A stretch of DNA of 64,000 nt from Candidatus Schekmanbacteria bacterium (GTDB lineage: Bacteria; Schekmanbacteria; GWA2-38-11; J061). Shown piece after piece: positions 3,053-18,059 of the stretch. The stretch spans positions 48,233 to 112,232 of the forward strand of contig JACRJM010000002.1 in the NCBI GenBank assembly GCA_016219965.1. Direction: 5' to 3'. The notes under the pieces were generated by a model. That model searched no databases. It was not told the origin of the DNA and worked only from the letters and a program-made list of their open reading frames with translations. Made by a program: the position numbers and the translations under genes. How positions within the stretch are numbered: the stretch's first letter is position 1; every line of letters begins with the position of its first letter.

Positions 3053-3155
3053 AGTTTGAAACTGAAAACACTTCTCCTGTTCAATTAACTATGTTGTGTA
3101 TACTTTTTAAAATCCTTTTCTGTTTCTATGTCAATATTATTATTTATATCTAACT

Positions 3156-3180
3156 GGATTCCCTCTTGCGAGGGAATGAC
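3156..3180 (-). repeat. GTCATT-headed hairpin repeat
   Basis: The reverse complement reads gtcATTCCCTcgcaagAGGGAATcc. The architecture matches 9771-9795, 9848-9874 and 4080-4112: a GTCATT head with self-complementary arms. Confidence 0.6.
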
Positions 3181-3192
3181 AGAACTTTTTTT

Positions 3193-3315
3193 GGCAAATG
3201 CGAGATTTGAGAGTCAGGCGAGGAAGCGGAAGGTGAGCATACCGGAGCATACTTCTAGTATGTGAGGATTGCGAACCTGACGCTGACAAAGCATCACTCC
3301 AAAGCTTGCATTTGC
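3193..3315 (-). repeat. Extended-hairpin intergenic repeat of about 125 bp, copy A (inverted relative to copy B at 9571-9696)
   Basis: Terminal arms are GCAAATGCGAGATTTGAG and CTCCAAAGCTTGCATTTGC. Inner arms are GTCAGG and CCTGAC. The central hairpin is CATACT-tct-AGTATG. It aligns along its whole length with the reverse complement of 9571-9696. Confidence 0.7.
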
Positions 3316-3316
3316 T

Positions 3317-4006
3317 CTACAACAGACCTTCTTCTCGAAAACTGAAATACCCCTTCTCACTTATGATGATATGATCAAGCAGTTTTATATCCAAAGGCGA
3401 CAATGCCTCTTGCAGAAGTCGTGTGATGTTTTTATCATCCTCCGACGGGCGAAGGCTCCCGCCCGGATGGTTATGCGCTACAATGATTGCAGTGGAATGA
3501 TGCTTTAAGGCCTTTTCCACGACCTTGCGCGGATATAATGGCGCACGGTCAACTGTACCTTCCTGCACTGTCTCGGTATGGACAGGTCTATTCCCTTTGT
3601 TCAAAAATAAGACGACTATCTTTTCGTTTTTTTCCCCTTTAAGCTCTGCCATGAGATAGTCGCAGGCAGACTTTGGCGAAGTCACGAGTGCCTTATCATC
3701 AAGACGTTTCTGAAGGTAAATTTTCTGGATGTCCTTGATGATGCTTAATAGAGCTATGCAGTTTTCGCCTATGCCTTTAATGGATTTAAGCTCCGAAGCT
3801 TCTGCATCAAGCACGCCATTGAGAGAGCCGAATTTTTCAACCAGGGATTTTGCGATAGGTTTTATATCCCGCCGTGGTATGGCATAGGTAAGGAGAAGTT
3901 CGAGTAACTCGTAATCATGCCATCCTGCACAGCCACCTGAAATATATTTTTCCCTTATTCTTTTTCTATGGCCTTCAGAGGAAAAAATGTCCGCTTTATC
4001 TTTCAA
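3317..4006 (-). CDS. radC: RadC-family JAB/MPN-domain protein
   Basis: 229-aa ORF. It has an N-terminal HhH-like region (LKSIKGIGENCIALL) and the C-terminal JAMM motif HNHPGGSLRPSEDD. Confidence 0.9.
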   Translation of the reverse strand: MKDKADIFSSEGHRKRIREKYISGGCAGWHDYELLELLLTYAIPRRDIKPIAKSLVEKFGSLNGVLDAEASELKSIKGIGENCIALLSIIKDIQKIYLQKRLDDKALVTSPKSACDYLMAELKGEKNEKIVVLFLNKGNRPVHTETVQEGTVDRAPLYPRKVVEKALKHHSTAIIVAHNHPGGSLRPSEDDKNITRLLQEALSPLDIKLLDHIIISEKGYFSFREEGLL

Positions 4007-6019: not shown

Positions 6020-7420
6020 ATGGAAGGACAGTTCTTAGATTATTTGTTTAATCCGCAGTCAATTGCCCTTGTTGGTGCCTCGGGCAAGGAGGGGAAGCTG
6101 GGTTATTTTTATCTTAAAAATCTTCTTGAATATAAAGGGAAGGTTTATCCGGTTAATCCCAATGAGGAAGAGGTGCTTGGTGTAAAATGTTACAAGAGTG
6201 TAAGTGCCATCGGGGCGCCAGTTGACCTTGTAGTGGTCGTTGTGGCATCGAAGTTCGTCCTAGATGTTATTAAAGAGTGCGCTGAAACAGGGGTGAAGGT
6301 CGTCCTTGTGACTACGGCAGGATTCAGTGAAGCGGGCCCTGATGGAAAAGCCCTCGAAGAAGAGATGCTAAGAATCGCGCGTAATGCAAAGATGAGGATA
6401 GTGGGGCCAAACTGCTTTGGCATAAGGAACTGCAATGCACAGCTAAATGCAACATTCTCATTTGAAGCATCAAAAGAGCCGGGAACGATCTCATTCCTTA
6501 CCCAGAGCGGCGGCGGCGGTGAGGTTATCTATATTCAGGGGAAAGACGAGGGGCTGAAATTCTCCAAATTCATGGTCTGCGGCAACAAAAGCGATTTGGA
6601 CGACTATGAGGTGATAGATTACTTTGGCGATGATCCGGAAACAAAGATAATCTGCCTTTTCCTTGAATCCATAAAGGAAGGAAGGAAGTTCTTTGAATCT
6701 ACTAAAAAAGTCACTGCCAAAAAACCTGTTGTTGTCTGCAAGGTAGGAAGGACAGAAGGCGCGGCACGTGCAGCATCATCACATACAGCCGCCATTGCAG
6801 GAAACTTCACTGCATATGAAACTGCCTTTAAGCAGGCAGGGCTTATAACAACGCGCAATGCTCAGGAAATGCTTGATGTAATAAAAGCAGTTGACTGGCA
6901 GCCTTTGCCGCAGGGTCCAAAGCTTGGAATAATAACAGCTTCAGGCGGTCTTGGCGTTGAACTCACAGATCTCTCAGAGGAAGCGGGACTAAGCGTTATC
7001 GAGCTTGAGCAGCATATTCAGGATCGCATAAAGCCGCTTATCCCTGATTTTGCATGTGCAAAGAACCCGGTGGACATGACTCCGATCTGGGGACAGTTCA
7101 GCGAGGTTATGAAAAAAACAATTGAGGCTTTCTACGATAGCGCCAATGTTGATATAATAGTTCCAATAATCGTACTTCGTGCAACGAGGATGATTGATGT
7201 TTTGGAATCAGTGCGGGATGCAATTCTTTCCTGCCAGGCAAACAGCAAAGTTAAGAAACCTACCTATATATGCTGGGTGAGCTTAAAGGATTCACTTAAG
7301 AACAAAGAGATATTTGAAAAGGCGAAGATACCATGTTTTGAATGGACCGGACGTGTTGCAAGGACTTCTTCTCTTGTTTATGGCTATGCCCAGTACTTAA
7401 AAAAATTGAGAGGTGAATAA
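6020..7420 (+). CDS. ADP-forming acyl-CoA synthetase, alpha part (CoA-binding plus succinyl-CoA-synthetase-like flavodoxin domains)
   Basis: 466-aa ORF. The N-terminus is PQSIALVGASGKEGKLGY...VYPVNP. A GPNCFG loop and the SHTAAIAG phosphohistidine-type segment are present. Confidence 0.8.
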   Translation: MEGQFLDYLFNPQSIALVGASGKEGKLGYFYLKNLLEYKGKVYPVNPNEEEVLGVKCYKSVSAIGAPVDLVVVVVASKFVLDVIKECAETGVKVVLVTTAGFSEAGPDGKALEEEMLRIARNAKMRIVGPNCFGIRNCNAQLNATFSFEASKEPGTISFLTQSGGGGEVIYIQGKDEGLKFSKFMVCGNKSDLDDYEVIDYFGDDPETKIICLFLESIKEGRKFFESTKKVTAKKPVVVCKVGRTEGAARAASSHTAAIAGNFTAYETAFKQAGLITTRNAQEMLDVIKAVDWQPLPQGPKLGIITASGGLGVELTDLSEEAGLSVIELEQHIQDRIKPLIPDFACAKNPVDMTPIWGQFSEVMKKTIEAFYDSANVDIIVPIIVLRATRMIDVLESVRDAILSCQANSKVKKPTYICWVSLKDSLKNKEIFEKAKIPCFEWTGRVARTSSLVYGYAQYLKKLRGE

Positions 7421-7424
7421 AGAA

Positions 7425-8123
7425 ATGCGTGGAGAAGAGAGAGCGAGACGGATATTTTCAACAGCGCGTGAAGAGAAACGCTCATATGTACTTGAGTATG
7501 AGGTAAAAGAGATTCTCAAGGGATATGATATAGATGTAACGAAAGAAGTTGTCTGCAAGACAGTGGACGAAGCCGTACAGGTGGCGAAGAACATAGGGTT
7601 TCCCATCGTGCTTAAAATAGTTTCCACCGAGGTTGTGCATAAGAGCGATTCCGGCGGAGTTAAACTTGGGATAAAGAGCGAAGAAGAGCTCAAAGCTGAA
7701 TTCGATAAAATGCTAGCACTTTACAGCGGAAAGTTTTCAGCCGAGGCGCTAAAGGGTATCTCAGTTCAGGAAATGGTTTCAGGAGAAGAGGTAATAATTG
7801 GAGTGCTAAAAGATTCGCAGTTCGGCCACATGATGATGGTAGGTATGGGAGGAGTTTTCGTAGAAGTGTTTAAGGATGTGGCATACAGGCTTGCCCCGAT
7901 CACCGAGGCAGAAGCAATGGAAATGTTAAAAGAGCTTAAGGGATTCAGGCTCCTTGACGGATACAGGGGGAGAAAACCTGCAAATGTTAAGAGTCTCTGC
8001 GAGACGCTCTCTCGCGTATCAACAGCGCTTGAAGAACTCCCTGAAATAAAGGAGATGGATTTAAATCCTGTTTTTGTCAATGACAAAAGGGCAGTGATAG
8101 CTGACGGCCGCATTTTTATCTGA
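7425..8123 (+). CDS. ADP-forming acyl-CoA synthetase, beta part (ATP-grasp domain)
   Basis: The ORF track starts at GTG 7413. The ATG at 7425 has GAGAGGTG upstream. ATP-grasp character is seen in LEYEVKEILKGYDIDV, GFPIVLKIVS..VHKSDSGGVKLG and DLNPV. Confidence 0.8.
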   Translation: MRGEERARRIFSTAREEKRSYVLEYEVKEILKGYDIDVTKEVVCKTVDEAVQVAKNIGFPIVLKIVSTEVVHKSDSGGVKLGIKSEEELKAEFDKMLALYSGKFSAEALKGISVQEMVSGEEVIIGVLKDSQFGHMMMVGMGGVFVEVFKDVAYRLAPITEAEAMEMLKELKGFRLLDGYRGRKPANVKSLCETLSRVSTALEELPEIKEMDLNPVFVNDKRAVIADGRIFI

Positions 8124-8165
8124 CCTTAATCATTAGGTTTTTATTTTAATCAAGTGGAGAACAGA

Positions 8166-9569
8166 ATGAGCACTTATAATGATCTCAGAGATTTTATAAA
8201 AATTCTGGAAGAGAAGGATGAGCTTAAGCACATAACAAAAGAAGTGAGCTGGGACGAAGAAGCCGCCGCGGTTTTTATAAAATCAGCAAAGAAGAATAAC
8301 AGGGCCCTCATATTTGATAAAGTAAAAGACTCAAAGTTTCCTCTCATCATAGGCACGCTTGCATCGCCTGAAAGGATAAAGCTTGCAATCGGAAAAAGCG
8401 GAGAGGGCTTTGATGATTTTGTGGATAAAGTTCTAAATACCAAGAGAGATGACTTCCCTGCAACAACTGTCGCAAGCGCGCCTTGCCAGGAGGTTGTTAT
8501 CACTGGTGATGATGTTGATCTCCTCTCGCTTCCTATTCCTAAGTTTAACGAGAAGGAAGGGGGGCGCTATATCACGGCAGGCGTTTCGATAAGCTATGAT
8601 CCTGAGACCGGCGCACGTAATGCCGGCGTTTACCGCATGATGGCAAGAGATAAGAACGAGCTCAATGTCAATTTCGGATTCCCCAACAGGCATCTTCTTA
8701 TGCATGCCAAGAAAAGCCAGAAGATGGGAAAGCCCCTTCAGGTTGCCATTGCATTAGGGTGTGATCCGGCTGTCTGGCTTTGTGCTGCAATGCCGCTTCC
8801 TGCAAGCTATGACGAGGTCAATCAGGCAGGCGCGATAAAAGGAAAAGGCATTGAGATGGTAAAGGGGAAGACTATTGATATCAATGTCCCAGCCACTGCG
8901 GAAATTATCCTTGAATGCGAGATGGACATCTCTGTCATGAAGCCTGAAGGTCCTTACAATGATTTTCAGGGCTATTACACAAGAGTAAAAGATAACTATG
9001 TCATCAAAGTTAAAGCTATTACACACCGCAAGGGCGCGATTTTTGAAACAAGCATGACAGGTGCAGTCCCTGAAGGCGAGATGGAAGTTTACCGCCATTT
9101 GCTTTTAAGCCAACAGAAAGTACAGTTGAAAAAAGTGATACCGCAGGTCGAGGCAATGACATTCGATGCGGCGAGCATGGGGCATATTTATATAGTTTCA
9201 GTGCGCAACAAAAGACCATTCATGGCTAACCAGATAGGCAGTGCCATCCTTTCGTTCCCGTGGAGCAACATGGTTAAGATGGTGATCGTTGTTGACAATG
9301 ACATAGATATCTTTGACCCTGCCCAGGTCATGTGGGCGATTGCCACAAGGGTTGATTTTGAAAAGGATGTCACACTTCTTCCCAATATGCCGGGTGCAAG
9401 CTTTGATGTCGGCACAGGCGGAAGAAAAGGCGTAAGCAAGATGATACTTGATGCCACCATGAAGCTTGAAGATGAAGGCTATCCGGGCAAATTCCCCGAG
9501 GCAGGAAGACAGTCAGCGAAGATAGTGCAATTCGTAAGAGATAACTGGAAGTCCTACGGTCTGGATTGA
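8166..9569 (+). CDS. UbiD-family (prenyl-FMN-dependent) decarboxylase
   Basis: The track ORF starts at GTG 8154. The ATG at 8166 follows GGAGA. The protein is about 467 aa and begins DLRDFIKILEEKDELKHI, which is typical UbiD. GRYITAGV and YRMM motifs are present. Confidence 0.85.
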   Translation: MSTYNDLRDFIKILEEKDELKHITKEVSWDEEAAAVFIKSAKKNNRALIFDKVKDSKFPLIIGTLASPERIKLAIGKSGEGFDDFVDKVLNTKRDDFPATTVASAPCQEVVITGDDVDLLSLPIPKFNEKEGGRYITAGVSISYDPETGARNAGVYRMMARDKNELNVNFGFPNRHLLMHAKKSQKMGKPLQVAIALGCDPAVWLCAAMPLPASYDEVNQAGAIKGKGIEMVKGKTIDINVPATAEIILECEMDISVMKPEGPYNDFQGYYTRVKDNYVIKVKAITHRKGAIFETSMTGAVPEGEMEVYRHLLLSQQKVQLKKVIPQVEAMTFDAASMGHIYIVSVRNKRPFMANQIGSAILSFPWSNMVKMVIVVDNDIDIFDPAQVMWAIATRVDFEKDVTLLPNMPGASFDVGTGGRKGVSKMILDATMKLEDEGYPGKFPEAGRQSAKIVQFVRDNWKSYGLD

Positions 9570-9570
9570 G

Positions 9571-9696
9571 GGCAAACGTAAGATTTAGCAGCATACTTTG
9601 TCAGCAGCCAGCTCGCAAATCCTCATGTACAGAAAAGTACACTCCGGTATTGCTCGCCGTCCGCTTTCGCGTCTGCTATCTAAATCTTACGTTTGC
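9571..9696 (+). repeat. Extended-hairpin intergenic repeat of about 125 bp, copy B
   Basis: Perfect 17-bp terminal inverted repeat: GCAAACGTAAGATTTAG at 9572-9588 and CTAAATCTTACGTTTGC at 9680-9696. The central hairpin is TGTAC-agaaaa-GTACA at 9626-9641. The reverse complement aligns with 3193-3315. Confidence 0.75.
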
Positions 9697-9770
9697 AAAA
9701 AAATATATTCAGCTTCCTCGTCTTCCACGCAAAACTTGAATTTGCAAAAAAATGTATTCAGCTTTTCTCT

Positions 9771-9795
9771 GTCATTCCCGTGAAAACGGGAATCC
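9771..9795 (+). repeat. GTCATT-headed hairpin repeat
   Basis: The sequence is gtcATTCCCGtgaaaaCGGGAATcc, with perfect 7-bp arms. Confidence 0.6.
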
Positions 9796-9828
9796 AGTGA
9801 TTTTTTGTTTATTCCTTTTTTTGTATGC

Positions 9829-9910
9829 CATTCTGAGTCCTTCGCTTGTCATTCTGAGCGTAGCGAAGAATCTCATGTTTCGGCTCAGGATAAACTCCGC
9901 GAAGAATCTC
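9829..9910 (+). repeat. Block of short GC-rich repeats (CATTCTGAG x2, GCGAAGAATCTC x2)
   Basis: CATTCTGAG occurs at 9829 and 9850. GCGAAGAATCTC occurs at 9863 and 9899. The block includes the hairpin gtcATTCTgagcgtagcgaAGAATctc at 9848-9874. The track ORFs here are translations of these repeats. Confidence 0.6.
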
Positions 9911-9970
9911 GTTTTTTTCTGTTACTTTTACTCGCTCATCTATAATTTTCAATGGGGGTTTTAAAAAGTA

Positions 9971-10080
9971 GTAGCAATCTCAAACCTATTTATGCCACTT
10001 TATTGTCAGCTTTAATCAAGTTTAAGTTACTATTTTAGACTTTTAATCTTGACTGGCTATCTGCGAGAAATGTATAGAGT
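9971..10080 (+). promoter_or_regulatory. Conserved promoter-bearing leader, copy 1
   Basis: It aligns without gaps to 13790-13899; by my count 87 of the first 100 positions are identical. It contains TTGACT at 10049-10054, an 18-nt spacer, and TATAGA at 10073-10078. Confidence 0.6.
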
Positions 10081-10125
10081 AAGAAAATAGAAGACGTATA
10101 AAAAGAATGTTGGGCATAAAATGCA

Positions 10126-11370
10126 ATGGATCAGAATATGAAAATTTATCCGTTCAACGATGGAGATATATTTGCCACATTTCGTAATATCGTAGACAAG
10201 GTAACACAAGAGATTCAGGCATTAGAAAACGAATATGTGCTTAAAGCGTCACTTGCTGAGCTTGAAAATTACTATATCGAAAAGGTCTTTATTCATCCAC
10301 TTGTCCTACACACAGATCATTATTACATTGAGAATCAATCAGGCACGCAGATAGATATTAGTCATGATTTCCGCAGAGCCGTATTTCCTGGACAGCGTGC
10401 TGTTGTCAGAGGGACCTGTTTAGATATAGCCATTCCATACGATGGGGATTCTATTCTTTGGAGAATTCAAGCTTCCACGTTTAGCTTAAGTGGCTTTCCT
10501 GAGATAGAAATACGTGATGATACGATAGTTCTAACTGTTAGTTTCCCAGATGACATGGCAAACCCTGACCAACTTAAGGTAGATATAGATAGGAGCATTA
10601 GGTCATTAACTGATGCAGTAAAAAATCTAAGTACTGACGTAGAAAAACATAACAATTCAGTGCCGCAAATTATTAAGGCTACCTTACAGCGCAAGAGAAT
10701 GTTAGCCGAATCTACCATTGGTACTGTGTCATCTCTTGGAATTCCAATAAAACGGCGCGACAAGCCATTAACATTCACAGCACCTATGAAACGACGAGAG
10801 TCTCCCATACCTAAGCCAAAAGTTCAAATCGAAGCATATAAACTTGAACCAGTCTTATCAGAAGAAGAGTACCAACATATACTGGAAATTATGCGAAGCA
10901 TGTCTTTAGTAATTGAAAGGAATCCAGCCGTTTTTTCTTCTCTGGATGAGGAGGCTATTCGAACCCACTTTCTCTTACAGTTAAATGGCCACTATAATGG
11001 AAGCGCTACAGGCGAAACCTTTAACGCTTCAGGCAAAACAGACATTCTCATTAGAGTTGAAAATAGAAACATATTTATCGCTGAATGCAAGTTCTGGAGA
11101 GGTTCTTCGGGATTTAATGAAGCTATTAATCAGCTCCTTGGTTATTTATCCTGGCGGGACACTAAGTGCGCATTGCTAATATTTAATAAAACTAAAGATT
11201 CCTCTGGTGTTTGTCAAAAAATGCATGAAACAATGAACTCTCGTCCAGAACATAAAAGAACAATCACATTTAATCCTAATAGTGATGCAAGATACATTTT
11301 CGTAAAAGAAACAGATCCAGGTCGTGAAATTATAATTACAACACAATTGTATGACTTGCCCATTATTTAG
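10126..11370 (+). CDS. Hypothetical protein with C-terminal PD-(D/E)xK-type nuclease motif (cassette ORF 1)
   Basis: 414-aa ORF; an alternative start is ATG 10138. The C-terminal core is GKTDILIRVENRNIFIAECKFWRG (D-x13-E-C-K), followed by QLLGYL. The middle has a basic, Pro-rich linker (KRRDKPLTFTAPMKRRESPIPKPK). I do not recognise the N-terminal half. Confidence 0.55.
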   Translation: MDQNMKIYPFNDGDIFATFRNIVDKVTQEIQALENEYVLKASLAELENYYIEKVFIHPLVLHTDHYYIENQSGTQIDISHDFRRAVFPGQRAVVRGTCLDIAIPYDGDSILWRIQASTFSLSGFPEIEIRDDTIVLTVSFPDDMANPDQLKVDIDRSIRSLTDAVKNLSTDVEKHNNSVPQIIKATLQRKRMLAESTIGTVSSLGIPIKRRDKPLTFTAPMKRRESPIPKPKVQIEAYKLEPVLSEEEYQHILEIMRSMSLVIERNPAVFSSLDEEAIRTHFLLQLNGHYNGSATGETFNASGKTDILIRVENRNIFIAECKFWRGSSGFNEAINQLLGYLSWRDTKCALLIFNKTKDSSGVCQKMHETMNSRPEHKRTITFNPNSDARYIFVKETDPGREIIITTQLYDLPII

Positions 11371-11383
11371 GATAATTGCAGAT

Positions 11384-11475
11384 GGCTAACAAAACGCTAA
11401 AGAGGGACGAGGATTAGCCGTCTTTTTTTCATTTCGGACTCTGTGCACCCGCGCCCTTCATGTTGGGTGTTAGGC
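11384..11475 (+). other. Integron attC-like recombination site 1 (92 bp)
   Basis: The 5' box is GGCTAAC (RYYYAAC-like) and lies 14 nt after the stop codon. The 3' box is GTTAGGC (a perfect GTTRRRY). The two boxes are complementary with one mismatch. The interior is only imperfectly palindromic. Confidence 0.5.
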
Positions 11476-11555: not shown

Positions 11556-13055
11556 ATGAGAGGACGTAAGAATTTAATAGATGAATTAAGCCCCATTCTC
11601 TTGGTGTTGGGGGTTGTGGCAAATTTAGCTGCTATAGTGACGCCACTTTTGCCATCCGCAGCACCATGGATGTCTTTATTGTTCCTTGTGTTCGCAGTTT
11701 TGTTTTGGCTGTTTATTTTGTACAAAAGAATAAATACACCACATAAAGCACGCACTGCACCTGTTCACCTTCACTCTGATTGGGACGCAACTGCACTTGT
11801 GTCCAGTTTATCAAATGCTAAAATTTCGGTGATTAAGCCATCTTTGAAGATTCTTGAGTCACTTTCATTGCATCTTATAATAGCCGACAGGCTCGATACA
11901 GGAGGATGGTCAAAAACGCAGACTTGGCGTTTTGTTCGAGTTAAAAAACCTCTTTCTCCTGTTGGAACTCTAACAGGCACATACTTCGCATTCGAGGCGC
12001 TTAGGCCTTATGGTTATCTGCATTCCTCAGAAGCAAATCATCTTAAAAGTAAACTGTCTGAAATAGTAATGCCAGATGGACGAGTTAAGCGACAAGTTCA
12101 ACTTACGGGCACTGGCATAACAGAAATAGTTTCGGAAAACCTGCGGCACTCTTCTGCGTGGTTTCTTCTTCGTGCATCAACAGGTGATCATCCTACACCC
12201 GCCGATAGAAATTGCGCACTACGAATTGCTGCTGACCTTGCTGGTAGGCTCGAGGTGGCAGAGAGTTTAAAAGGTTTAAAAGAAGATAAAGATATGATGG
12301 GCACTGCATTTGCAACTGTTGCACTCATTGCTGAAGAGCCATGGTTCCAAAACAGAAAACCAGAGCATCAAGAACTGGTTCGATTGTCAATCAAGGCGTT
12401 CTGTAAGTCAAATGAGTTAAGTACTCCGGGTCATCCCTCTTGGGGTGCTGAAGGAGGTGGCTCAGCTGCTGCAGAAACTGCTGCACAGTGGTGTACAGTA
12501 TGGCTCTTATGTTCTATTGCTGACTGGCATGGCTTGGATAGCAGTTTGAAATATGCTTTGTCTGATCAATTACTTGACCTCATTGAGGCAAACATTGCCG
12601 CAGCGACCACTAAGGACATTTTATTGCCATACGCTTTCACTCGTGACGCATCGCGAACGCCAATAGGAGAGTCACTTTTGGCGACGGCAATAGCATGCTA
12701 TGCTTCTATGATACTTTTGGGCATTCAAACCCAGCGAGCAGACACAGAAAGAGTGGAAAGAGCAATTCATGATCTTCTGCATCGAATTATAGACCGAGGT
12801 ATTAAATACTCAACAATTGATTCTTTAGTAGAGCCTTACGAAGGGTACCTGTCATGGGCTGCCTTGCTTTTTGCACTGAGACCAATTCTTCATCCTGTTG
12901 CTTTAAAAGCGACAAATTTTATTTCTGAAATATTGTCAGACACTGCAATTAATTTAGGATCTAATGACTTAATGTTAGCCCATGAAAAAATTAACTTCTT
13001 GTATAACGAAGCTGGAATTACTCTGCACCCTAATGGTCTAATGCAGGATTTGTAG
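11556..13055 (+). CDS. Membrane-anchored protein with alpha/alpha-toroid (prenyltransferase/terpene-cyclase-like) repeats (cassette ORF 2)
   Basis: 499-aa ORF with a GAGGTG RBS. Two N-terminal TM helices are predicted (ILLVLGVVANLAAIV..., MSLLFLVFAVLFWLFILY). Repeated GGW...T.Y.A.EAL-type segments follow (DTGGWSKTQTW...GTYFAFEAL, HSSAWFLL, GTAFATVALIA, EGGGSAAAETAAQW). Confidence 0.45.
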   Translation: MRGRKNLIDELSPILLVLGVVANLAAIVTPLLPSAAPWMSLLFLVFAVLFWLFILYKRINTPHKARTAPVHLHSDWDATALVSSLSNAKISVIKPSLKILESLSLHLIIADRLDTGGWSKTQTWRFVRVKKPLSPVGTLTGTYFAFEALRPYGYLHSSEANHLKSKLSEIVMPDGRVKRQVQLTGTGITEIVSENLRHSSAWFLLRASTGDHPTPADRNCALRIAADLAGRLEVAESLKGLKEDKDMMGTAFATVALIAEEPWFQNRKPEHQELVRLSIKAFCKSNELSTPGHPSWGAEGGGSAAAETAAQWCTVWLLCSIADWHGLDSSLKYALSDQLLDLIEANIAAATTKDILLPYAFTRDASRTPIGESLLATAIACYASMILLGIQTQRADTERVERAIHDLLHRIIDRGIKYSTIDSLVEPYEGYLSWAALLFALRPILHPVALKATNFISEILSDTAINLGSNDLMLAHEKINFLYNEAGITLHPNGLMQDL

Positions 13056-13111
13056 AGAAAACGACATTTATGAGTCTATAGGTATCAAATGAATAATGAA
13101 CGAATATAAAT

Positions 13112-13176
13112 TCCTAACAACCGCATCAAGGCCGACGCCGAGAAATGCGGCGGCGCCACTGGTGAGGCCGTTAGCC
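13112..13176 (+). other. Integron attC-like recombination site 2 (65 bp)
   Basis: The sequence is TCCTAACAACCGCATCAAGGCCGACGCCGAGAAATGCGGCGGCGCCACTGGTGAGGCCGTTAGCC. The arms are complementary with bulges. As I remember it, the layout closely resembles the classical 60-bp aadA-type attC. Confidence 0.75.
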
Positions 13177-13191
13177 CCGAAAGGATTTAAC

Positions 13192-13710
13192 ATGAGACGA
13201 GAAGAAAGAACAATCCCATCAGAAGAGATCCTACTGAAAGCAATGGAGCTTGCATGGAAAGACCATCATCACGCGCGAGACCAAACATGGAAGACAGTAC
13301 AGATGGTTGCGGTATTAGGCGCGGGTCTATTGACTATAGATCTCCAATACAAGAGTTTGCTGGCAACCGCACTAGCAGCCCTTCTCGTGGTCCTTGCTTC
13401 GGCCGTTGGTGTTGGGATCACCTGGAATCATAGGAAGTTAGAAAGGAGAAAATTTATACATTTGATGAATTGTGAAGAACTTCTCGGACTACACCGCGAC
13501 GATATCATTCCTCTTGCCTGCAATGATGACTCGATGAAGAACAAAAGTGATCTTGTAAAAGACAGCGCAGTCAGCGTTCCGAAGAAATACAAGTTCATCG
13601 ACGTTATCAATCCTTTCAAGCAAAATACTTCACTTTTCATCCTTCGAATTCACCTTGCTATCATGGTGTTTGCATTACTCATCATATTCCTAAGGTGGCG
13701 TATCACATGA
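13192..13710 (+). CDS. Small membrane protein, three predicted TM helices (cassette ORF 3)
   Basis: The track ORF starts at 13096 but reads through attC-2. The ATG at 13192 lies 16 nt after the GTTAGCC box. Predicted TM segments are VQMVAVLGAGLLTI, LATALAALLVVLASAVGVGI and LFILRIHLAIMVFALLIIFL. Confidence 0.55.
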   Translation: MRREERTIPSEEILLKAMELAWKDHHHARDQTWKTVQMVAVLGAGLLTIDLQYKSLLATALAALLVVLASAVGVGITWNHRKLERRKFIHLMNCEELLGLHRDDIIPLACNDDSMKNKSDLVKDSAVSVPKKYKFIDVINPFKQNTSLFILRIHLAIMVFALLIIFLRWRIT

Positions 13711-13789
13711 GTAAAAATAAGGAGAGCGCCTGTTTTTTATGGAATCTATAAAGGCGGAATTTTAAATCTTATTCTTCTGGTCACTGCCG

Positions 13790-13900
13790 TAACAATCTGA
13801 TACCCATTTATGCCAATTTATTGTCAACTTTGATCAAGTTTAAGTTACTATTTTAAACTTTCCTTCTTGACTGACTATCTGCGAGAGAGATATATAAGTA
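13790..13900 (+). promoter_or_regulatory. Conserved promoter-bearing leader, copy 2
   Basis: Paralogue of 9971-10080. It contains TTGACT at 13868-13873, an 18-nt spacer, and TATATA at 13892-13897. The spacing and offset are the same as in copy 1. Confidence 0.6.
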
Positions 13901-13991
13901 TATGAAGTACAATATATATAAAAAAGAATATTACGTTTACCAATTTTATCCAAATTAGTATCTAAGTTCAAAGCTTACAAGATAGAAGATT

Positions 13992-15671
13992 TTGAATAAT
14001 TCTCCAACAAATATGTGGATTGTAATTGATGAAATGCCCCCCGGCTCAATGAATTTTGAGAAAATTGGTGGTATAAAGATTTTTCGCCCTCGAGCATCTA
14101 ATGAGGTAGCACTTTGTGTTGAGGCTGAAAATAATCTTCGATCTGAATTTGAGGTTGGAAAATATACTGATAGGGAAACTATAAACAGGATTCTAAAACA
14201 TCAGTTTAGTTTTTTTATTAATTTACTTAACCAGTTATTGCCCACCTTAGCATCTTTAGATTTTTTGAGATTTCTTCTGACCGAATATGATAAGACCTCA
14301 GAAATTGATCGCTTGTATAAAAACAATCAGCTTAATGATGATAAGGAAAAATGGGCTGATTTAGGCCCAACTATACGGCGAGCAATAAAATATCTCGCAG
14401 AGCGAGTAATTCTGTTTCGACCAGTAGAACTGCCTGATGTGTCAGATGAAATAATAATAGAAGCTACAGAAAAAATATGGATTTGTGCAGAAGAATTGGT
14501 GAAGCACTACATTTTAAGCGACCAGACGTTTATGATCTTTCCTGATGATACAATTTTTGAAGTCAATCCAGTAGGTAATCACAACTATTGGACGCTTAAG
14601 ATAAATAATAATTATGCCACAGAAGTGCGAGAACGTATAAGAATTGATACAATGAATCGGGATAAATTTATACATTCCCCGTCATTTGACCTGCAATCCA
14701 GTGAGCATGAAAAAATATTGGGGGATGCATTCAAAAATACTATGAGTTTATCATATCTGGAAGTTTTAGGGACTTTACGAACTTTCATTGATTTAGCTCA
14801 ACCACCTCAAGAGGGTTTTCCTATTCCGTTTGTACACCGAGAACAAACTCTCAACTTGCTAGCAAGCTACTTAAACTTCCCGCAACCAGCTATTGAGCAG
14901 GTTATTGCCGGTTTCTCCATTTCCCAATCCAATTTAGAAACCGAAGGTCGTGAGATATGGAAACCGAAACAGGAGTATAGGGCTTTCAGAAGGGGTATTT
15001 TTGAAGCCCCTCATTCTACAGGAACTCATCTAATTTTTTCCAAAGCAATGGCAGAAGAGAGCGCACTTCAGCTTGTAGGGGGAATAGTATTTAAAGACAT
15101 TCCACCAGAATGGCGCAGTGATGAAGTAAATGTGGCTCTGGAAACTTTGTCAAACGAAGCTGGAAAGTGGTTTGAGCAAGTAGTTTTAAAAAATTTTGAA
15201 ATGGTTGGCGTTTTTGGCATAAAATCTATGAAGAATGGGATTGGACAGCAAAATAAGAGAATTACAATTCCTCCAGATGTTGGCGAGATTGATTATCTTG
15301 GATATTCTCCATGTGAAAATCTATTGGTTTTGTGTGAGTGTAAAATGGTCAGAGCAGGCTTTGAACCAAAATATTTCCGCGATGAGATATATGAATTTGT
15401 GGGCAGCAACACATCTTATTTTAAGAAGTTTCAAAGGAAAATTGATTGGGTACGTCAGAACGTAAATGATATATGTGATGCTCTATCATCTGTTCGGGTA
15501 CATGATGTACCCATTACACCGACCCGTATTGCAACAGTAATTGTCACACTCTATCCGTCTATCGTTTCTTGTTTTACTACTGATTTTCCATGCGTCTCTA
15601 TCACCGAAATCATGATGGGATACAAACAGAATGGGAATTGGCCCTATAAATTGGGAGTACTTATTTGCTGA
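13992..15671 (+). CDS. Hypothetical protein with C-terminal PD-(D/E)xK-type nuclease motif (cassette ORF 4)
   Basis: 559-aa ORF starting at TTG; an alternative start is ATG 14013. The C-terminal core is WFEQVV...GEIDYLGYSPCENLLVLCECKMV (E...D-x14-E-C-K). I do not recognise the N-terminal 430 aa or so. Confidence 0.55.
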   Translation: MNNSPTNMWIVIDEMPPGSMNFEKIGGIKIFRPRASNEVALCVEAENNLRSEFEVGKYTDRETINRILKHQFSFFINLLNQLLPTLASLDFLRFLLTEYDKTSEIDRLYKNNQLNDDKEKWADLGPTIRRAIKYLAERVILFRPVELPDVSDEIIIEATEKIWICAEELVKHYILSDQTFMIFPDDTIFEVNPVGNHNYWTLKINNNYATEVRERIRIDTMNRDKFIHSPSFDLQSSEHEKILGDAFKNTMSLSYLEVLGTLRTFIDLAQPPQEGFPIPFVHREQTLNLLASYLNFPQPAIEQVIAGFSISQSNLETEGREIWKPKQEYRAFRRGIFEAPHSTGTHLIFSKAMAEESALQLVGGIVFKDIPPEWRSDEVNVALETLSNEAGKWFEQVVLKNFEMVGVFGIKSMKNGIGQQNKRITIPPDVGEIDYLGYSPCENLLVLCECKMVRAGFEPKYFRDEIYEFVGSNTSYFKKFQRKIDWVRQNVNDICDALSSVRVHDVPITPTRIATVIVTLYPSIVSCFTTDFPCVSITEIMMGYKQNGNWPYKLGVLIC

Positions 15672-16037: not shown

Positions 16038-16286
16038 ATGGTTACGAAAATTCAAAAATGGGGAAACAGCCAGGGGCTGCGTATTGCCAGACAGGTTCTT
16101 GAGGACGCGCACATTTCGGTGGGCGACGAGGTTGACGTGACAATAAGGAAAGGCATGCTTATCATTGCTCCGATAAAATGCATTCGTGGTCTCAGGAGTC
16201 TGGAAGAACTGGTCTCACGCATACCCAAGAGCTACAAGCCCAAAGAGACTGATTGGGGCAAACCAGTGGGTAAAGAGGTCTGGTAG
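16038..16286 (+). CDS. mazE: AbrB/MazE/SpoVT-family antitoxin
   Basis: 82-aa ORF with the signature N-terminus VTKIQKWGNSQGLRIARQVLE. The RBS is AGGAGG. Confidence 0.85.
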   Translation: MVTKIQKWGNSQGLRIARQVLEDAHISVGDEVDVTIRKGMLIIAPIKCIRGLRSLEELVSRIPKSYKPKETDWGKPVGKEVW

Positions 16287-16394
16287 GTGAAAGAAGATAT
16301 TCCTGAAAAGGGCGATTTTATTGCAGTCACATTCAATCCCCAGTCCGGGCATGAACAGAAAGGCCGCCGCGCGCGTGGGACCTGCGCATTATAA
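16287..16394 (+). pseudogene. mazF: Truncated MazF/PemK-family toxin (N-terminal 28 aa or so only)
   Basis: A GTG lies directly after the mazE stop. The translation is VKEDIPEKGDFIAVTFNPQSGHEQKGRR, which matches the MazF N-terminus (GD.....F.P..GhEq.G.R). It then diverges (ARGTCAL) and stops at 16392-16394. Confidence 0.7.
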
Positions 16395-16514: not shown

Positions 16515-17177
16515 ATGTTTCAAGGAGACGGTAGAGTGACAATAAACATACTTCGTAAAAAGGTAAAGGGTGAGGAGTTTGATTATCAGATCCTCCTTGA
16601 CTGTCTAAAGGGAGTGAAATGCCCGCGCGACAAGATTACAAACATGCTCAAGCGTGGTATGATAATTCGTATTAAGAAGGGCATCTATGTCTTTGGCAAG
16701 GATTATGCCCGAAGTCCTTTCTCAAGGGAAGTGCTTGCTAATATGATTTATGGACCTTCCTATATATCGCTTGAATATGCCCTTCATTATTATGGGTTTA
16801 TTCCTGAGCGCGTCGAGGCATTGACATCAAGTACATGCGGACGCGGGCGGAAATTTTCAACGCCTGCCGGATTGTTTATTTATTGTTCGATACCGCGAAA
16901 GGCTTACAGCAAAGGGATAGACAGAGTAGAAATCTCGGGTGGAAGCTCCTTTCTGATAGCTGTACCGGAGAAGGCGCTTGCAGACAAGGTATTCCTTGAC
17001 AGGGGGACAGGCATAAAGACACAAAGAGAAATGGAAAGATATCTGAGCGAGAACCTTCGTATTGACTTTAGTCAACTGGAACGTCTTAACCATAATTTGA
17101 TTTGTGAGCTTGCATCTTGCTATGGCTCAAGGAAGATAAGGCTGTTAAGCGAGCTCATCCATAAGTCAGCAAAATAA
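16515..17177 (+). CDS. abiEi: AbiEi-family type IV TA antitoxin / transcriptional regulator
   Basis: 220-aa ORF; the GTG at 16536 after AAGGAG is an alternative start. It has the IRIKKGIYVF motif typical of AbiEi winged-helix N-domains. It sits directly upstream of abiEii. Confidence 0.7.
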   Translation: MFQGDGRVTINILRKKVKGEEFDYQILLDCLKGVKCPRDKITNMLKRGMIIRIKKGIYVFGKDYARSPFSREVLANMIYGPSYISLEYALHYYGFIPERVEALTSSTCGRGRKFSTPAGLFIYCSIPRKAYSKGIDRVEISGGSSFLIAVPEKALADKVFLDRGTGIKTQREMERYLSENLRIDFSQLERLNHNLICELASCYGSRKIRLLSELIHKSAK

Positions 17178-17192
17178 AAAAATGAATGATAT

Positions 17193-18059
17193 ATGAATGA
17201 AGTAATTTCAAAAATGATTTCTGCCTATGAGTGCAGGACGCTCGACGACTATGTAAAGGCACTTCGCGAGATTATGCAGGAAGTTGCCCTCCTCGGACTT
17301 TGGAGAAGCAAATTTTTCGAGCATTCTGCTTTTTACGGCGGAACAGCGCTGCGGCTTCTTTACGGATTGGACCGCTATTCGGAGGATCTTGATTTCTCGC
17401 TTCTTAAAGCTAACCCGGATTTTAACATTTCGCGGTATCTTAATGTCCTGAGAAATGAGCTGGTGTCATATGGCTTTGATGTAAGCCTTGAGAAAAAGAA
17501 GAAAGGAGAAGGCACTGCAATCCAATCTGCTTTTCTAAAGGCTGATACATTGAAGCAGCTTATCGTAGTTGAAGCTCAGAAAAATATAGTAGCAGAACTG
17601 CCGCGAGGAAGAATAATAAAAATTAAACTCGAAATCGATACAAATCCACCGGCAGGATTTGAAACTGAAACAAAGTTCCTGCTTCAGCCTATCCCTTTTT
17701 CAGTCAAAGTCTTTTCATTGCCTGATCTTTTTGCGGGAAAGATGCACGCACTTCTCTGCAGAAACTGGAAAAGCAGGGTTAAGGGACGTGACTGGTATGA
17801 CTTTGTCTGGTATGTTTCAAATCATCCGAATTTAAGGCTTTCACATCTTGAAAAAAGAATGCAGCAGAGTGGACATATAAGGGAAGAAGAACATCTTGAA
17901 GAAGATGAATTCCGCTCAATGTTGAGGGAAAAAATAAAAGCGGTTGACGTAGTACAAATTAAAAAAGAGGTAACTCCATTCCTAAAAAATCCGGATATGA
18001 TTGCAATATGGTCTGAAAAGTTTTTCCTGAGCCTGATAGAGAAAATTAAAATTGTATAG
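17193..18059 (+). CDS. abiEii: AbiEii/AbiGii-family nucleotidyltransferase toxin (DUF1814)
   Basis: 288-aa ORF with the signature FYGGTALRLLYGLDRYSEDLDFS, and K.HALL.R...RDWYD downstream. Confidence 0.85.
   Translation: MNEVISKMISAYECRTLDDYVKALREIMQEVALLGLWRSKFFEHSAFYGGTALRLLYGLDRYSEDLDFSLLKANPDFNISRYLNVLRNELVSYGFDVSLEKKKKGEGTAIQSAFLKADTLKQLIVVEAQKNIVAELPRGRIIKIKLEIDTNPPAGFETETKFLLQPIPFSVKVFSLPDLFAGKMHALLCRNWKSRVKGRDWYDFVWYVSNHPNLRLSHLEKRMQQSGHIREEEHLEEDEFRSMLREKIKAVDVVQIKKEVTPFLKNPDMIAIWSEKFFLSLIEKIKIV

Follow-up and report, generated by a model that had tools for sequence, protein, structure and literature searches.

The locus examined here raises the question of whether one protein can join an infection sensor to a nuclease and protect its host from phage without partners. 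It lies in a 64,000-nucleotide (nt) stretch of a genome of Candidatus Schekmanbacteria bacterium (GenBank assembly GCA_016219965.1, contig JACRJM010000002.1, positions 48,233 to 112,232; this whole stretch is the window, and coordinates are counted from its first letter), where an open reading frame (ORF) at 10126-11370 on the forward strand encodes 414 amino acids (aa). A preliminary description of this DNA had proposed that the gene is an uncharacterised single-gene anti-phage or abortive-infection effector, with an unassignable N-terminal half, a basic linker and a nuclease core built around an ECK motif. The ORF is present, and its quoted C-terminal string, ETFNASGKTDILIRVENRNIFIAECKFWRGSSGFNEAINQLLGYL, corresponds to residues 297-341. 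We think it rather probable that the gene is a horizontally mobile, stand-alone, single-protein anti-phage nuclease, and the looser label of defence nuclease is one we hold at that strength or slightly more firmly. The product has two domains, with a variable, sometimes swapped, N-terminus and a conserved C-terminal core, and it is mobile, autonomous and associated with defence.

The protein falls in a family that PADLOC already lists as a candidate defence gene, PDC-S54. The PADLOC model (PDLC05036) matches it with an E value of 7e-134 and 445 bits, aligning residues 6-412 with profile positions 4-407 of 410, and the same model matches all 100 of the diverse relatives that we aligned, so far as profile matches can tell leaving the window protein a typical member with nothing setting it apart. 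The PDC families were drawn from genes lying within BREX, DISARM or Type I restriction-modification (R-M) loci, and they entered PADLOC from this guilt-by-embedding screen without individual testing (bioRxiv 10.1101/2024.01.29.577857). PDC-S54 is absent from a cold-seep study that validated several other PDCs. The word uncharacterised therefore holds in the experimental sense, but the family itself had been catalogued. What was already known is PDC-S54 as a PADLOC candidate with no Pfam model; what is added here is how large and widespread the family is, an independent confirmation that it occurs embedded between hsdS and hsdR, a catalytic register of the McrC/HsdR type, modular N-termini and the lack of a detectable structural relative. 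Pfam gives no match to the window protein even at E<=10, and searches of NCBIfam and of PDB sequences return only noise, which in the PDB search, whether the query was the protein alone or a profile of 100 sequences, consists of coiled-coil and beta-strand matches at residues 87-252. PHROGs yields one weak match, to a family of unknown function, over residues 262-396; on the N-terminal half its matches are at noise level (E 0.03-0.09), and the earlier statement that this half belongs to no assignable family stands.

The family is large and widely spread. More than 5,500 homolog matches were collected; the best 120 all have a length of about 410 aa and an identity of 64% or more. Clustering at 50% identity gives 3,606 clusters at a cut-off of E<=1e-3, or 1,339 at E<=1e-30. 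A scan of species-representative genomes gave 144 relatives in more than 15 phyla, with CPR (candidate phyla radiation) bacteria and one archaeon among them. Identity between members from different phyla is 60-77%, a signature of horizontal transfer. The family is also carried by 22 plasmid records, haloarchaeal megaplasmids among them, by 2 phage genomes and 18 IMG/VR viral contigs, and by prophages.

The surroundings of the homologs show that the gene travels by itself. When neighbouring genes were clustered across 84 loci, no partner family occurred in more than 6, and for this reason we regard the PDC-S54 gene as a stand-alone unit with no conserved partner. Known defence genes are present in 9 of the 15 annotated contexts (the window included). 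Four contexts lie within Type I R-M loci, and in three of these the homolog stands between hsdS and hsdR. Two unrelated genomes (loci L113, 6676-9233, and L114, 6682-9236) have operons of the order hsdM-hsdS-X-hsdR in which homolog start and hsdS stop overlap, in both loci at position 8001, an overlap that suggests translational coupling to Type I R-M; a third locus (L090) has its homolog between hsdS and hsdR of a Type I R-M operon as well. The L114 operon also embeds a Shedu (SduA_C) gene. Elsewhere, the homolog at L001 lies near AbiE, a ubiquitin-like system and a SMODS/SLATT pair; on the Thauera plasmid pTX1 the surroundings are a degraded hsd locus with HsdS, RelE-HigA and a restriction endonuclease; on a Rhizobium plasmid the gene adjoins a homolog of retron Ec67; and TIR-domain proteins are neighbours at L115 and L116. 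A separate count of defence neighbours over 83 loci by single-sequence phmmer, with E. coli Hsd/Mcr/Mrr and the window AbiE as queries, proved too insensitive and was discarded, as it missed the Pfam-confirmed AbiE at L001. The L001 homolog, in a metagenome-assembled genome (MAG) of Nitrospira japonica (7120-9278; contig shared with L004), is 77% identical to the window protein. Ahead of it stand genes for a LexA-like repressor (LexA_DNA_bind plus Peptidase_S24) and a DUF2188 protein, in operon-like spacing with intervals of 3 nt and 2 nt. This arrangement hints at expression controlled by DNA damage or cleavage. A DUF2188 homolog is found near the gene at L046 as well.

The predicted structure divides the protein into two domains joined by a flexible segment (Table 1). 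The full-length AlphaFold model has a predicted local distance difference test score (pLDDT) of 73.6, with the N-terminal domain at 70-90 per 10-residue block; residues 205-241 are the only long segment below 50, and the C-terminal domain of this model covers residues 246-410. The Lys/Arg/Pro-rich linker that had been placed at about residues 205-235 is thereby recovered: these three residues make up 16 of the 36 positions (44%) in residues 205-240 versus 17% of the whole protein, and two KRRxxP repeats begin at 209 and 222. The linker is conserved as well as basic. The motif LGIPxKRR...P recurs in the family, an island of conservation covers 201-220 among the 100 diverse members, and close homologs show no variation at G205, I206, P207 and P220. 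The protein contains no NTPase (nucleoside triphosphatase) motif. Most homologs begin with MKIYPF, which makes the ATG at 10138 the probable true start. Beyond the linker, the acidic helix EEEYQHILEIM that had been reported is located at residues 246-256, within a predicted helix spanning 246-265.

Conservation is concentrated in the C-terminal domain, the most conserved part of the protein: the mean frequency of the top residue is 0.65-0.86 in the core (residues 281-350) versus 0.23-0.51 in the N-terminal domain. In four proteins (P0182, P0189, P0244 and P0152) the C-terminal domain is joined to four unrelated, unannotated N-termini. An AlphaFold model of residues 240-414 by themselves, built with 98 diverse sequences, reaches a pLDDT of 89.6 and a predicted template modelling score (pTM) of 0.86. 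Its elements as assigned by DSSP are a helix at 275-289, strands at 294-300, 305-311 and 314-323, a helix at 327-340 and a strand at 347-354, so that the order of these elements reads alpha-beta-beta-beta-alpha-beta. The D...(D/E)xK motif sits on adjacent beta-strands of this model, D306 opening strand 305-311 and E320 and K322 lying in strand 314-323, and Q336 and Y340 are on the next helix. The C-terminal motif is more than a chance pattern: in a set of 100 members that share 30-58% identity with the query, no substitution occurs at D306, Q336 or Y340, and E320, C321 and K322 are each conserved in at least 90%.

We aligned the C-terminal-domain profile by hhalign to 13 targets, among them nucleases from E. 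coli K-12 and phage lambda. D306/E320/K322 fall in exact register with D244/D257/K259 of McrC and with D298/E312/K314 of EcoKI HsdR, which we take from the mutational literature to be the catalytic residues of these enzymes, and QLLGYL is aligned with QLMNYL of McrC. McrC is the best of the 13 targets (pairwise E 9e-4 versus 0.028 or worse for the controls), and in a plain hidden Markov model (HMM) search it ranks first of about 850 background proteins. A search for homologs of the McrC nuclease domain gave 9 proteins, and a five-sequence McrC profile brought no gain in hhalign. The leading sub-threshold matches, which recur in 5-9 of the 100 members, are to PD-(D/E)xK families (HSDR_N in 9, pPIWI_RE_REase in 6-7 and DUF234 in 5); the rarer ones to LmuA (3), NERD (2), PD_DExK, Cas4b and SduA (1 each) agree with this, and the remainder is scattered, unrelated noise. 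Because of the invariance of the motif, the order of secondary-structure elements, the McrC/HsdR register and these recurrent matches, we regard assignment of the C-terminal domain to the PD-(D/E)xK nucleases as likely, not proven.

Several results weigh against reading the gene as an anti-phage nuclease. The similarity to McrC is marginal in score, with an hhalign probability of 23% against single-sequence McrC and 3% against the five-sequence profile, and the plain-HMM hmmsearch score is only 4.4 bits. Foldseek finds no significant match for the full-length model in PDB and BFVD, N-terminal domain included, and for the C-terminal-domain model it gives 0 matches in PDB at E<=0.001, with no nuclease in the top 50. 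The top weak matches of the latter are instead TUT7, the palms of Pol beta/lambda/mu and a terminase ATPase. Six of the 15 annotated contexts have no obvious defence genes, the homolog lying in integrase-flanked islands or in insertions among housekeeping genes; a literature search found no paper naming PDC-S54, its model accession or the homolog locus tags; and the role of the N-terminal domain as a sensor is pure inference. The absence of a restriction-endonuclease fold from the predicted structure had been set beforehand as grounds for refuting the proposal, and that fold is not clearly recovered, Foldseek having returned no nuclease match. The ECK nuclease core thus survives in the conservation of its motif and the order of its elements, whereas its profile scores are marginal and its fold has no significant structural match.

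The palm matches deserve separate consideration, since they would make the C-terminal domain something other than a PD-(D/E)xK enzyme, for example a Pol-beta-like nucleotidyltransferase. They are the best that a confident model offers in the absence of any nuclease among the top 50, and they extend over about 65 columns at a root-mean-square deviation of 2.5-3 A with probabilities up to 0.96 and E values of 0.009-0.25, which leaves none at E<=0.001. The G[SG]...DxD/DxE signature of nucleotidyltransferases is absent from the sequence, and the model has no helix between the first two core strands, so that its order is alpha-beta-beta-beta-alpha-beta and not alpha-beta-alpha-beta. Moreover, hhalign against the window AbiEii, a true nucleotidyltransferase, stays at background, and the weak profile matches fall on PD-(D/E)xK families. 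We rejected the Pol-beta palm as a fold assignment on the grounds of motif and topology, and consider it improbable that the domain lies outside the PD-(D/E)xK group; the palm matches may reflect a shared beta-hairpin-plus-helix substructure.

If the gene is indeed an anti-phage nuclease, the C-terminal domain would be a divergent Mg2+-dependent PD-(D/E)xK DNase whose nearest characterised relative is of the McrC/HsdR type. Residues D306, E320 and K322 of the beta-hairpin would form its active site, together with Q336 and Y340 from the helix behind it. The N-terminal domain would give specificity or sensing, its 55-residue helix probably serving dimerisation, and the KRRxxP linker may contact DNA or restrain the nuclease. 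Under such a scheme the nuclease would be latent until the N-terminal module detects an infection cue, whereupon activation would lead to DNA cleavage. We tentatively favour this infection-triggered mode over direct recognition of foreign or modified DNA. Of the sensor-plus-nuclease architecture proposed for a single polypeptide, the two domains, the variable N-terminus and the catalytic-looking core are in evidence, and the sensor is the part that is not. The proposal of a single-gene effector fares similarly: the gene is a PADLOC single-gene candidate, has no partner and occurs in defence islands and R-M operons, but the nuclease fold on which the idea also leans did not emerge clearly from the model.

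Direct recognition would make the protein a Type IV, modification-dependent restriction enzyme in which the N-terminal domain and linker read modified or foreign DNA and the C-terminal domain cuts in the manner of McrC or Mrr, with no trigger. An N-terminal module followed by a C-terminal PD-(D/E)xK domain, with no methyltransferase partner, is the layout of Mrr and MspJI-like enzymes, which like some PDC-S54 genes occur near hsd operons; homologs beside or inside such operons recall the mrr and mcrBC genes that flank hsdRMS in E. coli K-12. Among characterised enzymes McrC (PF10117, E. coli McrBC), itself of Type IV, has the closest catalytic motif, with TD-I-x-IR...(D/E)xK(F/Y)(W/Y)...QL(L/M)xYL aligned in exact catalytic register, and a basic linker with KRRxxP repeats would suit DNA binding. 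The likeness to these enzymes goes little further. The N-terminal half of PDC-S54 is unrelated to McrC, the query has no PF10117 match and PF10117 lies outside the 25 most frequent families in the 100 members, and no McrB-type AAA+ GTPase partner stands beside PDC-S54 genes. No sequence similarity to Mrr was detected. The N-terminal domain matches no reader domain in full-length Pfam, PDB and Foldseek searches, although a novel reader is possible, and it is variable, being replaced by unrelated sequences in some members. The position of the L001 gene behind a LexA-like repressor is a further hint, here of a need to limit expression. On balance we find the Type IV explanation unlikely, though it carries appreciable weight beside the infection-triggered nuclease.

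The hsd-embedded copies suggest another role, that of a guardian resembling PrrC: a latent nuclease that the Hsd complex restrains, or that is co-expressed with this complex, and that is released when a phage anti-restriction factor disables R-M. In the EcoprrI locus prrC lies between hsdS and hsdR, which is the position of the homologs at L113, L114 and L090, the first two with the start-stop overlap described above. Most members, the window copy included, have no hsd genes nearby, and the fold and motif of PDC-S54 suggest a DNase, whereas PrrC is an ABC-ATPase-like anticodon RNase. The study of embedded genes, for which PrrC is the cited archetype, singles it out as almost exclusive to Type I R-M, and also finds many unrelated autonomous systems embedded (bioRxiv 10.1101/2024.01.29.577857). 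By analogy, a PrrC-like role is possible for the hsd-embedded copies; as an account of the family we give it only a slim chance. Slightly less improbable, yet still a poor bet, is a non-defence function, in which an accessory or maintenance nuclease of mobile elements, concerned with addiction, recombination or repair, hitch-hikes in variable regions. Its occurrence on plasmids, phages, prophages and integrase-flanked islands would fit, as would the several contexts with no defence genes, and the PDC status is guilt by association only. Against it, the 84 loci show no consistent linkage to integrase, transposase or replication genes, and embedding in R-M loci together with retron, TIR, AbiE and CBASS-type neighbours is typical of immune genes. 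The stand-alone anti-phage nuclease keeps our preference, and it can be set beside other PD-(D/E)xK effectors. Some PDC-S54 members make recurrent sub-threshold matches to pPIWI_RE_REase, Lamassu LmuA (Cap4-type), Shedu SduA, Cas4/RecB and the HsdR nuclease; the catalytic triad is in register with the HsdR N-terminal nuclease; and the spacing D-x13-ExK-x13-QxxxY resembles the QhxxY pattern of the RecB/Cas4 family. The window protein differs from all of these in giving no significant match to them and in having none of their partner proteins.

Table 1. Coordinates of the PDC-S54 gene, its parts and associated features in the window
Feature	Coordinates	Strand	Basis and remarks
PDC-S54 family gene	10126..11370	+	ORF listing; 414 aa, coordinates include stop
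N-terminal domain, residues 5-202	10138..10731	+	AlphaFold; 3 helices, four-stranded beta-sheet, 55-residue helix 147-202
Basic Pro-rich predicted-disordered linker, residues 205-241	10738..10848	+	pLDDT below 50; K/R/P content
C-terminal domain, residues 242-414, probable divergent PD-(D/E)xK nuclease	10849..11367	+	AlphaFold, conservation
Putative catalytic hairpin and helix, G303-K-T-D306 ... E320-C-K322 ... Q336-L-L-G-Y340	11032..11145	+	Conservation, hhalign
Terminator-like GC hairpin, GGACG-9 nt-CGTCT then T7	11405..11429	+	By eye; 35 nt past stop codon
Upstream repeat copy 1, ~140 nt	9971..10111	+	Direct repeat; TTGACT 10049-10054, 18-nt spacer, TATAGA 10073-10078
Upstream repeat copy 2	13789-13932		Precedes 559-aa ORF at 13992; TATATA instead of TATAGA
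MazE/AbrB-type antitoxin-like ORF, 82 aa, KWGNSQGLRI...	16038-16286	+	Assigned by eye
AbiEi/AbiEii	16515-18059		

In the window, the gene occupies an island of 9.6-18.1 kb between a UbiD/acetyl-CoA-synthetase operon and PEP-CTERM/MacB genes. This copy is not embedded in an R-M locus and has no hsd genes nearby, and no tRNA or rRNA was found within the window. What had been called a cassette array is a small island of defence genes, and the reported adjacency to toxin-antitoxin modules is correct in that a MazE-like ORF, a truncated MazF-like remnant and AbiEi/AbiEii all lie within it. Following the MazE-like ORF is a 35-aa remnant resembling the N-terminus of MazF/PemK (GDFIAVTFNPQSGHEQKGRR); the module as a whole, assigned by eye, spans 16038-16394 (+) and looks like a decayed mazEF directly upstream of AbiEi/AbiEii. 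In the integron sense the array does not hold up. We rejected integron cassettes because an attC-like fold is lacking, none of the flanking genes is an integrase gene and the repeat has only two copies.

That repeat, about 140 nt long, stands directly upstream of the PDC-S54 gene and again ahead of a 559-aa ORF, in copies that are 81-86% identical (Table 1). No further copy is present in the window, and none was found beside homologs in the other genomes searched. It folds no better than shuffled sequences (z -0.8 to +1.1). The private promoter attributed to the gene comes down to the pair TTGACT-18-TATAGA, which does not pass a strict sigma-70 scan; the repeat may be a shared promoter or operator. 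At the other end of the gene, our terminator scan passed over the hairpin at 11405-11429, whose 9-nt loop exceeds the limit of 8.

The 559-aa ORF (13992-15671, +) has a C-terminal D...ECK motif of its own (GEIDYLGYSPCENLLVLCECKMVR) and no Pfam or PADLOC match. In hhalign this motif falls in register with the catalytic hairpin of PDC-S54, at a score that is not significant, and the ORF may be a second orphan nuclease-type defence candidate under the same upstream element. Between the two putative nuclease genes lie unannotated ORFs at 11556-13055 (499 aa) and 13096-13710 (204 aa), both on the forward strand. The 499-aa protein has seemingly hydrophobic, membrane-like N-terminal helices, is the sole member of its 90% cluster, has no Pfam match and gives only a sub-threshold PADLOC match, to 'CARF, 2 TMs' (E 0.0087).

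The 555-nt intergenic region ahead of the PDC-S54 gene is rich in repeats in its 9561-9960 part. Here an inverted repeat of 17 nt has perfectly matching arms (9572-9588 / 9680-9696), 49 nt are duplicated in tandem (9660-9757) and a GCGAAGAATCTC-type motif occurs twice (9863-9916). The segment 9569-9798 recurs in inverted, diverged form (69-74% identity) at 3153-3318, beside a radC gene, and a short piece of the region matches a locus in a Chloroflexota MAG (L072).

For the window itself the result is modest, the protein being unexceptional within a candidate family that had been flagged before. The wider meaning depends on whether that family is a true defence system. In that event PDC-S54 would be a very abundant cross-phylum immune gene with no Pfam model, and its characterisation would add to the known repertoire a sensor module of a new kind and a divergent branch of nucleases, as neither domain has a detectable structural relative. 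Homologs inserted repeatedly between hsdS and hsdR, with apparent translational coupling, offer a convenient test case for distinguishing cooperation with R-M from mere shelter. In the fullest form of this view, which we hold guardedly and at somewhat less than even strength, PDC-S54 would be a genuine new immune system, among the most widespread of single-protein anti-phage nucleases, with a sensor domain whose fold has no counterpart in PDB or BFVD and a KRRxxP linker that gates an McrC-like nuclease, and its hsd-embedded versions could act as a PrrC-like DNase back-up, set off when a phage disables Type I restriction.

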